A DNA stretch of 64,000 bases from Escherichia phage St11Ph5: the sequence record NC_070873.1; one strand, written 5' to 3'. This document shows positions 7,037 to 14,262 of the stretch, one piece after another. Under the pieces are notes generated by a model. It was not told the DNA's origin, did not search any database, and worked only from the letters and a program-made list of their open reading frames with translations. The stretch's first letter is position 1, and every line of letters starts with the position of its first letter. The position numbers were made by a program, and so were the translations under genes.

Positions 7037-8254
7037 ATGCAACTGTTAACCGCTCGTGAATACCTGAAAGTAGATATCGCTAATAACTATGGCTTAGATA
7101 AGAAGACATGGGATGAGCGTATTGCCTGGTTTGATGAGAACGAAGCTAACCTGCTTAATCTGGTAGATGAAGCTGAAGATTCTGCTCTGTTCTTTGCTGG
7201 TGTAAACGCATGGAAAGACATGAAAGCAGGTAAGCCTATTGGTTATGCCGTAGCTCTTGATGCTACATCATCAGGCTTGCAGTTACTGGCTTGCCTGACT
7301 GGTGACCGCTCTGCTGCTGAATTGTGTAACGTAGTTAACTACATGGGTGAGAATGGTAAGCCATTACGTCGTGATGCTTATACAGTTATCTATCACAAGA
7401 TGCTGGACATCCTTGGTGAAGCATCACGTATTAAACGTAGTGATACTAAGCAGGCAGTTATGACTGCATTCTACGGCTCAGAAGCCAAGCCTAAAGAAGT
7501 ATTCGGTGAAGGTATTCGTCTCAAGACTTTTGAGAATGTAATGGAAACTGTTGCTAGTGGTCCTTGGGCACTTAACAAGTTCTTACTGCAATGTGGTAAT
7601 CCAGATGCTAACCGTTATATATGGGTACTCCCTGACAACTTCCATGCTGTCATTAAAGTCATGATTCCTGAAGTACAGACTGTTAACTTCTTAGGTAAGC
7701 CATTCGACATCACTCGTATGGTTCAGGGTACTGAAGAGAAGACACGTATGCTCTCTGCTAACATCACTCACTCTATTGATGGGATGGTGGTACGTGAGAT
7801 GCTGCGTCGTTGTAACTTCGACCGTGACTTAGTGGAAGCTGTGCGAGAACTCTGCGATGAAGGTCCATCAGAATATGGGGAGATTGCAGGTAATCTGGAG
7901 AAGGTACAGGAATTGTGGAGCCACTATGAGAAATCCGGCTTCTTATCCTTATCCATTCTGGATTATCTTGACCCATGTACTATTGCTTATGTAGACCGTC
8001 AGGTAGTAGCAGATATGATTGACACCATGCCTAAGAAGCCATTCCCTGTAATGACTGTACATGACTGCTTCCGTTGCCATCCTAACTACGGTAATGACCT
8101 ACGTCGTCAATACAATCAGATTCTGTCTGACATTGCTAAGAGTGACTTACTGGGCTTCATCCTGTCTCAGGTACTGGGACAAGAGTTCTCTGCTGGTAAG
8201 CTGGATGACAGCCTCTGGCAGGACATTCTTGAAACAGACTATGCATTAAGTTAA
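7037..8254 (+). CDS. phage RNA polymerase II, catalytic subunit (T7-like single-subunit RNAP palm; 405 aa)
   Basis: Motif A DATSSGLQ, motif B RSDTKQAVMTAFYGS, motif C TVHDCF. Confidence 0.85.
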   Translation: MQLLTAREYLKVDIANNYGLDKKTWDERIAWFDENEANLLNLVDEAEDSALFFAGVNAWKDMKAGKPIGYAVALDATSSGLQLLACLTGDRSAAELCNVVNYMGENGKPLRRDAYTVIYHKMLDILGEASRIKRSDTKQAVMTAFYGSEAKPKEVFGEGIRLKTFENVMETVASGPWALNKFLLQCGNPDANRYIWVLPDNFHAVIKVMIPEVQTVNFLGKPFDITRMVQGTEEKTRMLSANITHSIDGMVVREMLRRCNFDRDLVEAVRELCDEGPSEYGEIAGNLEKVQELWSHYEKSGFLSLSILDYLDPCTIAYVDRQVVADMIDTMPKKPFPVMTVHDCFRCHPNYGNDLRRQYNQILSDIAKSDLLGFILSQVLGQEFSAGKLDDSLWQDILETDYALS

Positions 8255-9783: not shown

Positions 9784-9832
9784 TTGCTTTATTTGGGGTT
9801 ATAAACCCTGAAATGAAACCCTCAAGTTTGAC

Positions 9833-9862
9833 CTCCCTATTAAAGGGAGGTCTTTTTTTGAC
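9833..9862 (+). terminator. intrinsic terminator (GACCTCCC ... GGGAGGTC then TTTTTTT)
   Basis: 8-bp stem plus 7 T. Confidence 0.7.
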
Positions 9863-10875: not shown

Positions 10876-11928
10876 ATGGCAAGCATTGACTCCTTGACTG
10901 TATGTAATTCACGTCAAGCTCGTAACTTTATTATCCGTGCTCTGAAAGCAGGTAACGTACCGTTCCTGACTTCATCACCAGGTATGGGTAAATCTGCAAT
11001 TATTCGTTCTATTGCAGAAGAATTTGGTATGAAGCTGATAGACCATCGTCTGTCTACTTCTGCTCCGGAAGACCTTTCTGGCTTACCATTCCGTAATGGC
11101 GACCGTGCAGAATTTATTCCTTTCGCTGACCTATTCCCTATTGAAGGGGATGAAGTACCGGAAGGTTATAATGGCTGGCTCCTGTTCCTTGATGAGTTCA
11201 ACTCAGCTAAGAAAGAAGTGGTAGCTGCTGCATACAAGCTGATTCTCGACCGTATGACTGGTCAGAAAAAGCTTCATCCTAATGTGATGATTGTCTGTGC
11301 TGGTAACAAAGCCACTGACCGTGCCATTGTTAACCCACTAGGTACTGCAATGCAGTCTCGTGTGGTTCACTTCGAAATGGAACTTAACTTCGACATCTTT
11401 GTTGAAGATGTAATGATTCCTCAGCAATGGGATGAACGTCTGGTTGCATTCTTACATGCTAATCCTGGTTATCTGCATGACTTCGACCCAGCACATAAGA
11501 ATAAAACATTCTGTTGCCCTCGTACCTGGGACTTTGTTAACAAAGACCTCAAGAACCTGCCAGAAGGTGCTCTGCCTGATGAAGATTCTCTTTACTACGC
11601 AGGACACGTTACTGCTGGTAAAGCTACAGAGTTTGTTCAGTTTACTCAGGTATACAATCGTATCATTACGATTGAGAAGGTGGTCAAAGACCCATTGGGC
11701 TGTGCACTACCCGATGATAACAACCTGTGTTGGGCTACCGTTAACCACCTGGCTAACAAAACTACTGAAGAAAACTTCGCTGATGTTCTTCAGTACATTG
11801 AACGCTTTAAAACGTTCACCCATAAGATTCTGTACTTCCGTACAGTAGGCAGAGCATTACCAGAACTACAGGCTACCCCTGAATGGCGTAAGGCTGCTGC
11901 TAATATCTCTCGTTACATTCACGGATAA
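10876..11928 (+). CDS. AAA+ ATPase, MoxR-like (350 aa)
   Basis: Walker A SPGMGKSA, Walker B LLFLDEFN, MoxR-like spacing. Confidence 0.8.
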   Translation: MASIDSLTVCNSRQARNFIIRALKAGNVPFLTSSPGMGKSAIIRSIAEEFGMKLIDHRLSTSAPEDLSGLPFRNGDRAEFIPFADLFPIEGDEVPEGYNGWLLFLDEFNSAKKEVVAAAYKLILDRMTGQKKLHPNVMIVCAGNKATDRAIVNPLGTAMQSRVVHFEMELNFDIFVEDVMIPQQWDERLVAFLHANPGYLHDFDPAHKNKTFCCPRTWDFVNKDLKNLPEGALPDEDSLYYAGHVTAGKATEFVQFTQVYNRIITIEKVVKDPLGCALPDDNNLCWATVNHLANKTTEENFADVLQYIERFKTFTHKILYFRTVGRALPELQATPEWRKAAANISRYIHG

Positions 11929-11935
11929 TCACAAC

Positions 11936-13111
11936 ATGAACCAATTTCCTCAGCACACACTTAGTGATGAACAACTCATGCGTGAGTATGACCGTATTCA
12001 GGCGCAGGCGTTTCTCGGACGCAGTGCTGCGTTCTTTGGTTCATTGCTGTGTAGTCTTAAGTTCTCATGGAAACGTGAGGATTGCCCCACTGCATGTACT
12101 GATGGGATAGAACTCCATTTCAACCCAGACTTCTTTATCTGGATGTGTCCAGATGCAAGAGAAACAGTATTAATGCATGAACTATGGCATGTAGCATATC
12201 TACATGACATCCGTCGTGGAAGCCGTGACCCGGAAATCTGGAACCAGGCTTGTGACCACTTCATTAACCTTCAGTTAGAAGAAGATGGTTACAAGTTCAC
12301 TGGCATTGACAAAGGCATTTGCAAAGACCCTCAATATAAAGGATGGGTCGAAGAAGACATCTACGATGACCTGATGAAGAACCCTCAGAAAAGGCAGAAG
12401 CCCTCGGGGGGTGCTGGAGCAGGTCTTGCTGGCGACATGAAATCCCCCACTTCGGGGCAGTCCCAGGGTGCTGTTGTCAACAACGTAGTACGTGCAATGC
12501 AAAGCCAGAAAATGGCTGGTGGACAGATGCCCGGTAAGGGTGCTGGTCGTATGGAAGAGGTTATTACCCAATTCCTTAAACCAGTGGTTCCCTGGCAGGA
12601 AGTTCTGATGAACTTCTTTACCGACATTGATGACACACACTATACGTGGGCCAGACCTAATCGTCGTTACACTGATATCTATCTACCTTCCCTGGAAGAT
12701 GATGAAGGACGTTTACGTCACTTAGCCTACTTTGAGGATGTGTCTGGTTCTATTAGTAGTGCTGACTCTCTGCGTTTTAACTCAGAGGTTGCCTACGTTA
12801 AGAGCCAATTCAATCCTAAGAAGATGTCCTTAATTACCTTCGACGATATTATCCAGGAAGAGATAGACATCACTGAAGAAGATACTTTTGAAGAGATTAA
12901 GATTACAGGTCGTGGTGGTACAAGCCTTGTGCCTGTACGAGATTGGATTATTAAGAATAAACCAACCGCTGCAATCATATTCTCCGATATGTATGTTCGC
13001 CCAATGGAAGAATTGCCATTTGATATCCCTATCATCTGGTGTGTTCTGAATAATCCTAATGCTACCGTACCTTTTGGGGAGGTAGTTCATATCCCTAAAG
13101 GAATGAAATAA
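11936..13111 (+). CDS. vWA-domain protein with N-terminal zincin-like HExxH domain (391 aa)
   Basis: HELWH motif, DVSGSISS MIDAS-like motif; directly downstream of the MoxR ATPase. Confidence 0.7.
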   Translation: MNQFPQHTLSDEQLMREYDRIQAQAFLGRSAAFFGSLLCSLKFSWKREDCPTACTDGIELHFNPDFFIWMCPDARETVLMHELWHVAYLHDIRRGSRDPEIWNQACDHFINLQLEEDGYKFTGIDKGICKDPQYKGWVEEDIYDDLMKNPQKRQKPSGGAGAGLAGDMKSPTSGQSQGAVVNNVVRAMQSQKMAGGQMPGKGAGRMEEVITQFLKPVVPWQEVLMNFFTDIDDTHYTWARPNRRYTDIYLPSLEDDEGRLRHLAYFEDVSGSISSADSLRFNSEVAYVKSQFNPKKMSLITFDDIIQEEIDITEEDTFEEIKITGRGGTSLVPVRDWIIKNKPTAAIIFSDMYVRPMEELPFDIPIIWCVLNNPNATVPFGEVVHIPKGMK

Positions 13112-13617
13112 TGGTTGTTAATGGTAATTCTCTATATCGTTCTTCTCAGTTGCTAGATGTCCCTGACCGTAAGATATCCGAGCATGGTGTAAGCTACGGA
13201 TTGGGTGAAGCTGGTTATGATATTCGTATCAAACAGGATATTACCTTCTATCGCTTACTTGGGTTGATTCCAATGGTGAAGGTCGTTGATGGAAATCAAG
13301 TATCACGACATTTTGGTAAGTTCACATTGGCTTCAGCAATTGAGAAGTTCAACATGTCTCCGTCCTGTGTAGCTATCGTTCACGATAAGTCTACATGGGC
13401 AAGACGTGCATTATCCGTATTTAATACAGTAATCGAACCAGGGTGGAAAGGTTGGCTTACTTTAGAGCTTGCCTACCATGGTCGTAAGAAATTGCATATC
13501 CCGGCTGGTTCTGGGATAGCTCAAGTATTATTTCATCTGGTTCAGGAACCTGCTAATTACAATGGCAAGTACATGAACCAGGAAAACAAACCAGTAGCTG
13601 CAAGAAGCAGTAAATAA
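13111..13617 (+). CDS. dCTP deaminase/dUTPase-fold protein (168 aa)
   Basis: GVSYGLGEAGYDIRI and EPGWKGWLTLEL motifs resemble dCTP deaminase. Confidence 0.55.
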   Translation: MVVNGNSLYRSSQLLDVPDRKISEHGVSYGLGEAGYDIRIKQDITFYRLLGLIPMVKVVDGNQVSRHFGKFTLASAIEKFNMSPSCVAIVHDKSTWARRALSVFNTVIEPGWKGWLTLELAYHGRKKLHIPAGSGIAQVLFHLVQEPANYNGKYMNQENKPVAARSSK

Positions 13618-14161: not shown

Positions 14162-14234
14162 CTAACCGAAGTATCCCCAAGAGGGTACTTCTGGAAGTTA
14201 CTTCCAGCTCATTGCTTATCCATCTCCTAACCCA

Positions 14235-14262
14235 AGCCCACCTAACCCGTGGGCTTTTTTAT
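14235..14262 (+). terminator. intrinsic terminator (AGCCCAC ... GTGGGCT then TTTTTTATTT)
   Basis: 7-bp stem plus T-run. Confidence 0.7.

Follow-up and report, generated by a model that had tools for sequence, protein, structure and literature searches.

The coliphage St11Ph5 (Escherichia phage St11Ph5, NC_070873.1) carries two adjacent open reading frames, here called ORF A and ORF B, which a model working from the letters of the sequence (the original prediction) had described as a MoxR-type ATPase and a von Willebrand factor A (vWA) protein with a zincin-like N-terminal domain. We followed up this pair within a 64,000-nt stretch of the phage sequence (the window), to which positions refer unless stated otherwise. 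Both genes lie on the plus strand, are separated by 7 nt and fill positions 10876–13111. They are the orthologues of gp24 and gp25 of phage N4, with 62% (ORF A) and 61% (ORF B) identity over more than 96% of their length. Their features are listed in Table 1.

Table 1. Features of the ORF A and ORF B locus in window coordinates. MIDAS, metal ion-dependent adhesion site.
Feature	Position	Strand	Remarks
ORF A	10876..11928	+	350 aa; AAA+ ATPase by its motifs, midasin/MoxR (AAA_5-like) branch; N4 gp24 orthologue
Walker A / P-loop SSPGMGKS	10972..10995	+	aa 33-40; P35, G38, K39, S40 invariant in 34 homologues
Helix-2 insert region DHRLSTSAPEDLSGLP...FIPFADLFP	11041..11139	+	aa 56-88; conserved, predicted flexible
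Walker B LFLDEF, then N-S-A (DEFNSA)	11182..11199	+	aa 103-108; D106, E107 invariant (E107 among the 34 homologues)
Sensor 1 (CAGN, N144) to arginine finger (MQSR, R162)	11296..11361	+	invariant in both alignments
CPRTW motif of the helical lid; R216, W218	11515..11529	+	candidate sensor 2
ORF B	11936..13111	+	391 aa; predicted zincin-like domain, linker and vWA/MIDAS domain; N4 gp25 orthologue
HELWHVAYLH (HExxHxxxxH)	12176..12205	+	HELWH aa 81-85 (12176-12190), extra His H90; predicted active-site helix aa 72-87
WNQACD motif	12239..12256	+	N103, A105, D107 invariant; in the helix after the HExxH helix
RPNRRY motif, linker directly before vWA	12653..12670	+	conserved, low model confidence
vWA domain with complete MIDAS	12713..13093	+	Rossmann-like vWA fold
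MIDAS D268-x-S270-x-S272 (DVSGSISS, aa 268-275)	12737-12751	+	DVSGSISS begins at nt 12737
MIDAS T329 in GGTS	12914-12925	+	
MIDAS D351 in FSDM	12980-12991	+	
dCTP deaminase gene	13111..13617	+	context; start overlaps the ORF B stop (TAATG)

ORF A was aligned with 33 homologues (profile A2) and, separately, with a diverse set of relatives at 21–36% identity. The Walker A and B motifs that the original prediction had named, like the HELWH and DVSGSISS motifs of ORF B, were found at the expected sites and are conserved in homologues. In the diverse set G38, K39, S40, D106, N144, R162 and R216 are invariant. W218 is also invariant there and nearly so among the N4-like phages, and the motif formed by R216 and W218 may serve as sensor 2. 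Judged by its Walker A and B motifs, sensor 1 and arginine finger, ORF A is an AAA+ ATPase. The AlphaFold model of the protein (predicted local distance difference test, pLDDT, 86.9) contains a 40-residue insert between the strand at aa 52–58 and the Walker B strand at aa 100–106, a pre-sensor-1 beta-hairpin at aa 131–139 (strands 131–133 and 137–144) and a large C-terminal domain that is all helical. The insert is of low model confidence (pLDDT below 50 at aa 64–80) and of conserved sequence: D56, H57, R58, T61, S62, P64, D66, G69, P71, F80, P82, F83, F87 and P88 are invariant in the helix-2 insert region, and D66, G69 and P71 remain so in the diverse set. As this region also aligns with the matching region of the midasin AAA modules, it is likely to be a docking or pore element.

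The only Pfam family to score above its cut-off on ORF A is AAA (E 5.6e-6, 27.3 bits, cut-off 21.2). The closest structural neighbours of the model are dynein, midasin, CbbQ and NorQ. A profile of the ORF A family matched midasin at 9.4e-35 and NorQ at 5e-7. Searched against the PDB, the N4-like profile A2 matched midasin alone (6.7e-4) and the N4-like profile A1 matched nothing, even at an E-value of 10; profiles restricted to N4-like sequences are thus too narrow, and profiles of diverse relatives (A3, A5) were needed. The helix-2 insert, the pre-sensor-1 hairpin and the nearest neighbours agree in placing ORF A in the MoxR/midasin/dynein branch. Of the MoxR-like ATPase proposed originally, the branch stands, but within it ORF A is nearer to midasin than to classical MoxR.

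For ORF B we used an alignment of 34 N4-like sequences and a set of ten diverse relatives (23–30% identity) from plasmids, PA5oct, Thermus phage phiFa, cyanophage S-TIM5 and rV5. Pfam assigns aa 17–253 to DUF2201_N, a "putative metallopeptidase domain" (E 2.1e-56). H81, E82, H85, N103, A105 and D107 are invariant in the N4-like alignment, and H81, H85, H90, R93, N103, A105 and D107 in the diverse set. From the composition of ORF B, 0.014 HExxH and 0.097 DxSxS motifs are expected per protein; with such low expectations, and given their conservation, the two motifs are not there together by chance. The AlphaFold2 model of ORF B (pLDDT 79.5) has strands at aa 42–45, 53–55 and 59–62, a helix at aa 72–87 that carries HExxH, and a helix at aa 99–116 that carries N103 and D107. 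Three strands leading to an HExxH helix and then to a next helix fit the layout of a minimal zincin.

The zincin-like fold put forward in the original prediction was checked by profile search. Profile A3, built from diverse relatives, matched the M48 peptidase 3c37 (E 4.3e-4) in an alignment of ∼55 residues across the strands and the HExxH helix, and also matched the minigluzincin MJ1213 (5.6e-3) and an HtpX homologue (6.9e-3). This supports the proposal as a sequence relation to the M48/minigluzincin group. Single members of the ORF B family gave weak matches to Peptidase_M48 (4 of 10, best 1.1e-3), to SprT-like proteins (2 of 10) and to other zinc-peptidase families; no non-peptidase alternative recurred among the 10 members scanned. 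The M48 peptidases and minigluzincins (HtpX, Ste24, BepA, MJ1213) share the HExxHxxxxH spacing with ORF B in the profile alignment; the similarity is weak, however, and ORF B differs from the M48 proteins in being soluble rather than membrane-bound and in being fused to a vWA domain. The N-terminal segment of ORF B is best read as a predicted M48-like zincin, in which the WNQACD motif is a candidate for the third metal ligand or for catalytic support. The position of the M48 glutamate ligand is, we assume, perhaps an asparagine in ORF B.

The C-terminal part of ORF B (aa 263–386) matches the "VWA-like" family DUF2201 (E 2e-34). The MIDAS residues D268, S270, S272, T329 and D351 are invariant in the 34 N4-like sequences; in the diverse set the first four are invariant and D351 nearly so. 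VWA_CoxE matches were obtained for some members of the family, the structural neighbours of the domain include the vWA domain of NorD (10.8) and BchD (10.2), and by fold ORF B also matches ORF892 of the virus ATV (E 7.5e-5). The C-terminus is thus a vWA fold with a complete MIDAS, where a MIDAS-like motif had been predicted. The linker in front of it holds the motif WxRPNRRY..YLPS and has a pLDDT below 50 at aa 235–258. Among the N4-like sequences W238, R243 and R244 are invariant and R240, P241 and N242 nearly so; in the diverse set, too, R243 and R244 hardly vary.

These assignments conflict with the databases, in which many records of ORF B homologues, including RefSeq N4 gp25, bear the product name "HNH endonuclease" (for example L001 11936–13111 and L023 2165–3307). 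The name traces to PHROG 1314, which bears this same label and to which ORF B has a match at 9.5e-144. Taken at face value, it would make ORF B an HNH endonuclease. Pfam, however, shows only DUF2201_N and DUF2201 in ORF B and 43 relatives, with no HNH domain even at E-values up to 10, and the fold of ORF B is that of a vWA domain plus a helical/strand zincin-like domain. True HNH genes do occur, as separate insertions next to or inside the pair genes of some phages. We give the endonuclease practically no credence: the label is a propagated mis-annotation, which was probably seeded by these separate HNH genes.

One such insertion is found in the ATPase genes of the Gamaleyaviruses PW8 and pSb-1. 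Here an 868-nt insert with an HNH ORF lies inside the invariant sequence PEDL|SGLP (L022 501–1369; L021 likewise), corresponding to window position ∼11076/11077 and to codon 67/68 of ORF A, in the helix-2 insert region. Removal of the insert restores a 350-aa ORF with 98% identity to ORF A. The insert can be delimited so as to leave U as the last nucleotide of the 5′ exon and G as its own last nucleotide, and the codons on either side show synonymous recoding. The match to the Rfam group I intron family RF00028 is sub-threshold (26.8 bits, E 0.001); from these sequence features the insert is probably a group I intron. Several partial matches to ORF A (P0141, P0145, P0180 and PHROGs 21479 and 16335) may be pieces of interrupted genes, and the ORF A matches of Bp4 and PD38 fall into two pieces with an extra stretch of ∼470–480 nt.

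ORF B has been invaded as well. Two metagenomic relatives (P0244, P0248) carry inteins (Pfam Vint / Intein_splicing) between A105 and C106, that is within the WNxACD motif at window position 12250/12251, with C106 as the +1 residue. Inteins and introns typically settle at the most constrained sites of important genes. The presence of selfish elements within conserved motifs of both genes thus suggests that the two motifs are functionally important. A different interruption is seen in pSb-1, where the ORF B homologue (L021 2226–3402) is split into ORFs of 153 and 204 aa. We considered a natural two-chain form and rejected it, as the split is caused by two 1-base deletions in C-runs, 62 nt apart, which are most likely homopolymer sequencing errors.

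Relatives of ORF B were found in 739 phage records and relatives of ORF A in 827, with the same spread of hosts; those of both ORFs include the jumbo phages PA5oct, PBECO4-type, K64-1 and CBB. By tblastn, ORF B relatives were also found on 101 plasmids, of which 30 are typed as conjugative, and clustering at 50% leaves 21,513 representatives of the family. A scan of GTDB genomes with the N4-like profile A1 returned N4-like sequences only, because the back-translated patterns were too specific. In several cases N4-like gene blocks are embedded in bacterial contigs of very large size, of which one belongs to an isolate genome; the blocks could be integrated or resident elements or mis-assemblies. 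A 297-kb contig of a Roseococcus metagenome-assembled genome (L003) holds phage RNA polymerase II (RNAP II), gp24, gp25, dCTP deaminase and ThyX; contig2 of Mesorhizobium yinganensis CN2-181 (L004, positions 435974–447110 of 727 kb) holds the same set with no RNAP II homologue in the fetched stretch; and a 153-kb Mesorhizobium contig (P0152) holds an ORF A homologue. The circular Acinetobacter baumannii "plasmid" pRBH2-3 (L013, NZ_CP110465.1; 75,126 bp) resembles an N4-like phage in its size and in its genes, which include a phage RNA polymerase and gp24- and gp25-like genes.

The pairing of the two genes is obligate. Of the fetched ORF B loci, 15 have their upstream flank intact, and all 15 contain an ORF A-family ATPase within ∼4 kb; in eight it adjoins or overlaps the ORF B relative. 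What is new here is that this one ATPase family stands beside ORF B relatives in N4-like phages, the jumbo phage PA5oct, rV5, Thermus phage phiFa, cyanophage S-TIM5 and four plasmids, namely a conjugative Burkholderia plasmid, Cupriavidus pBB2, a Rhodococcus linear plasmid and Synechocystis pSYSA. The relation of the ATPases extends over the C-terminal helical domain, as a profile of the N4-like ATPases aligned with the Burkholderia plasmid ATPase over 309 columns (hhalign, probability 99.85). Across the 15 loci, no further gene accompanies the pair consistently. Only the two Burkholderiaceae plasmids, of Burkholderia and Cupriavidus, have an ORF of 309 aa in common between the ATPase and vWA genes (L012 7013–7939 and L020 7115–8002; 56% mutual identity); it matches no Pfam family and could encode a lineage-specific adaptor or substrate. 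In S-TIM5 (L017 3490–8304) an Hsp20 gene precedes the pair and ThyX follows within 1.5 kb, an echo of the ThyX neighbourhood of the N4-like phages. We conclude that in large mobile elements the two genes form a module that is complete in itself.

Taken together, we put the probability at roughly 55% that ORF A and ORF B are the two components of a remodelling machine of the midasin kind that has a protease built in. In such a machine ORF A would form an AAA+ ring of the midasin/MoxR type, on which the vWA domain of ORF B would dock, probably at the conserved helix-2 inserts. The MIDAS metal site would capture an acidic residue of a target protein, ATP hydrolysis by the ring would pull on the target or remodel it, and the M48-like zincin, which shares its polypeptide with the MIDAS, would cleave the captured target. 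The pair would be made in the cytoplasm during the middle phase, co-transcribed with nucleotide-metabolism genes, and would serve a core rather than an accessory step of the infection cycle. Precedents for a MoxR/midasin-type ATPase working with a vWA partner are midasin itself, RavA–ViaA, CoxD–CoxE and the tail system of ATV (PMC7159879), the last of these with p618 and p892 (PMC4124505). NorQ/NorD and CbbQ/CbbO provide further analogies for the mechanism.

Several observations weigh against this reading. ORF A scores 17.4 for AAA_5 (PF07728), under the cut-off of 22, and has no match to AAA_3 (PF07726, MoxR proper) in Pfam and none in NCBIfam; five relatives in its family do exceed the AAA_5 cut-off (23.6–26.9), and all AAA_3 hits are below 27. 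In ORF B the third zinc ligand could be either H90 or D107, and rV5 lacks the catalytic glutamate (E82), the sole loss among the ten diverse relatives. Peptidase activity, ring formation and an interaction between ORF A and ORF B are all predicted from sequence, and our search of the literature on the gp24/gp25 family and DUF2201 found no experimental work. Finally, the action of the known MoxR–vWA pairs is for the most part remodelling or cofactor insertion, not delivery to a protease.

The comparison with midasin (Rea1) shows what would be particular to the phage pair. Midasin acts in eukaryotic ribosome assembly and is a single giant chain with six AAA modules, a C-terminal MIDAS and no peptidase, whereas ORF A has one AAA module per chain, presumably acting as a homo-oligomer, the MIDAS is carried by a separate protein, which has a zincin in addition. 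In bacteria, NorQ/NorD, CbbQ/CbbO, RavA/ViaA, CoxD/CoxE and BchI/BchD likewise combine an ATPase of this AAA+ branch with a vWA/MIDAS partner, and CbbQ (12.8) and NorQ (12.4) are, with the NorD vWA domain and BchD, among the structural neighbours of our models. ORF A differs from the bacterial MoxR proteins in its larger, distinct C-terminal helical domain, which is conserved in its own family, and the bacterial partners differ from ORF B in having no zincin.

The known roles of these bacterial systems are cofactor insertion or enzyme reactivation, and several characterised MoxR–vWA pairs act in this manner (PMC7159879). Like NorQ/NorD, CoxD/CoxE, BchI/BchD or CobS/CobT, the phage pair might then activate a metalloenzyme, for example one of nucleotide metabolism, with the HExxH motif holding or delivering a metal rather than cutting peptides. 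The structural neighbours NorQ, NorD and BchD and the VWA_CoxE matches fit this view, as do the coupling of the pair to dCTP deaminase and the nearby ThyX gene in the window, in other N4-like phages and in S-TIM5. Yet we know of no need of dCTP deaminase or ThyX for an inserted metal centre. The plasmid copies have no such neighbours, the catalytic glutamate is conserved alongside the histidine ligands, and the alignment to M48 extends beyond the motif, so that we consider metal insertion very unlikely.

The surroundings of the pair bear on the step of infection in which it would act. The window is collinear with genomes of the genus Gamaleyavirus (N4-like coliphages, Schitoviridae), and the 2,236-bp stretch of the pair is 93–95% identical to that of 53 deposited phages (e.g., PD205, ECBP1, IME11 and Bp4) and has identical coordinates in phage ShWW44. 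The pair belongs to a syntenic block with RNAP II and nucleotide-metabolism genes, and the order RNAP II, gp24, gp25, dCTP deaminase (gp26), ThyX (gp30 homologue) and rIIA/B is shared with N4. The dCTP deaminase gene follows the pair in six of eight N4-like loci; from its overlap with ORF B it is predicted to be translationally coupled to it, which does not by itself imply a functional link. The top terminator-like sites on the plus strand, at 9830–9852 and 14234–14256 (9 and 8 stem pairs), enclose a unit of five small ORFs, ORF A, ORF B and the deaminase gene, and a weaker match to the terminator consensus is present inside ORF B (12017–12034). Between positions 8200 and 17200 there are 6 sigma-70-like promoter matches, a strong depletion relative to shuffled sequence (21.5 ± 4.5), and an excess of terminator-like hairpins (17, against 6.1). 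Middle genes of N4 are transcribed by the phage RNAP II, and the depletion of sigma-70-like promoters would fit transcription by this polymerase.

A middle-phase setting speaks against a role in morphogenesis, in which the pair would act as chaperone, co-chaperone and processing protease for the virion or other large export structures. This role was proposed by Iyer et al. (2021; PMC7824862) for the group 2.2 jumbo phages, whose genes have the same two-gene architecture and the same Pfam families at ∼23–30% identity to ours and are often split by several ORFs or homing endonucleases. ATV offers a second precedent: its MoxR protein p618 binds the vWA protein p892 and virion proteins and is involved in tail development (PMC4124505), and ATV ORF892 is the fold match mentioned above. 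Like ORF A and ORF B, p618 and p892 are a virus-encoded ATPase and an interacting vWA protein; they differ in having no peptidase domain, in being much larger, and in that p618 is a major virion component acting outside the cell. Further indications are an "ESI-MS/MS" note on the PA5oct ATPase record, as on PA5oct structural proteins (the main text of the PA5oct omics paper does not mention the pair), a second block of virion-protein genes near the gp24/gp25 homologues of roseophages (PMC4193335), a Hoc-like decoration gene 1.5 kb upstream of the pair in the window, and the position of the pair on the Burkholderia plasmid, where it stands directly upstream of type IV secretion genes and has a PRTRC cassette on its other side. 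Nevertheless, the N4 homologues are described as middle transcripts, gp24 and gp25 are missing from the N4 virion proteins in Table 4 of the same study (PMC4193335), and the carrier phages have very diverse types of virion. The pair is also carried by plasmids, which produce no virions and some of which are non-conjugative (pSYSA, the Rhodococcus linear plasmid); this argues against a strictly virion-specific function and makes the jumbo-phage proposal less general. A general function in the assembly of large machines would still fit; a role in morphogenesis as such appears unlikely to us.

The same distribution could also point to the interface between element and host, as the module is common to unrelated phages and plasmids, one of them conjugative. 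The machine might recognise and cleave a protein of the host, be it a defence factor, a protein of the nucleoid or some other conserved host complex, so that the element can establish itself. The pSYSA copy lies amid toxin-antitoxin and DUF262 genes, and the Rhodococcus copy near genes for an SOS-response-associated peptidase, an RNA ligase and a toxin-antitoxin gene. In N4 the pair is expressed ahead of the late genes (PMC4193335), and there are vWA–MoxR conflict systems with N-terminal effectors, which are in rare cases metallopeptidases (Kaur et al., 2020; PMC7159879). We asked whether the pair is itself such a system, given the likeness of a MoxR protein and a vWA protein with an N-terminal effector, and rejected this: ternary conflict systems require a third component (VMAP, beta-propeller or FtsH-like), of which none is conserved in our loci, bpMoxR scores 13.7 on ORF A against a cut-off of 27, and PADLOC gave no significant match. 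These results also speak against host takeover or counter-defence in the wider sense. In addition, counter-defence genes are usually variable and accessory, whereas the pair is core, with ∼50% identity between N4-like phages of alpha-, beta- and gammaproteobacteria. Host takeover is thus an explanation that we hold with little confidence.

The remodelling machine with a built-in protease can be carried one step further. The pair could represent an unrecognised class of ATP-dependent protease, in which a ring of the midasin/MoxR type would work in trans with an M48-like zincin guided by the MIDAS. Diverse large mobile elements would use it to extract and cut one conserved protein of the host or the element, a step that would be essential for establishment or replication. 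The core-gene status, the distribution across elements and the insertion of selfish elements in catalytic motifs of both genes fit this idea, which we regard as a tentative one. ATP-driven processing of a target, for which the original prediction had named defence or virion maturation, is what we likewise infer.

As a sequence finding, the pair is correctly described and was already known at the annotation level, from N4 gp24/gp25, from Pfam DUF2201_N/DUF2201 and from the identical architecture of a MoxR protein and a metallopeptidase–vWA protein in jumbo phages (Iyer et al., 2021; PMC7824862). N4 gp24 ("AAA ATPase") and gp25 ("vWFA"), which differ from ORF A and ORF B in no substantial way other than genus (Enquatrovirus against Gamaleyavirus), were already listed in 2009 (PMC2784036). 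Both belong to the core set of 14 genes of the N4-like phages (PMC4193335) and were again core in a family-wide analysis in 2020 (PMC7650795). The claim that the pair is conserved in N4-like phages yet uncharacterised also agrees with the literature that we searched: it yielded only genome notes for DUF2201/PF13203/COG3864, nothing that joins "N4-like" and "MoxR", and nothing that joins CRISPRi-ART and phage N4.

Ordinary as it is as a sequence finding, the pair poses a well-defined problem, that of a core, widespread two-gene module of an ATPase and a predicted protease. gp24 and gp25 stand among the ∼14 genes shared by N4-like phages, beside the RNA polymerases, DNA polymerase, capsid, portal and terminase, and are among the core genes that are still listed without a function. 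Knowledge of their target would fill a gap in the biology of N4 and would test whether motors of the MoxR/midasin type can feed a protease, and it might reveal a general step by which large mobile elements take hold in the cell.

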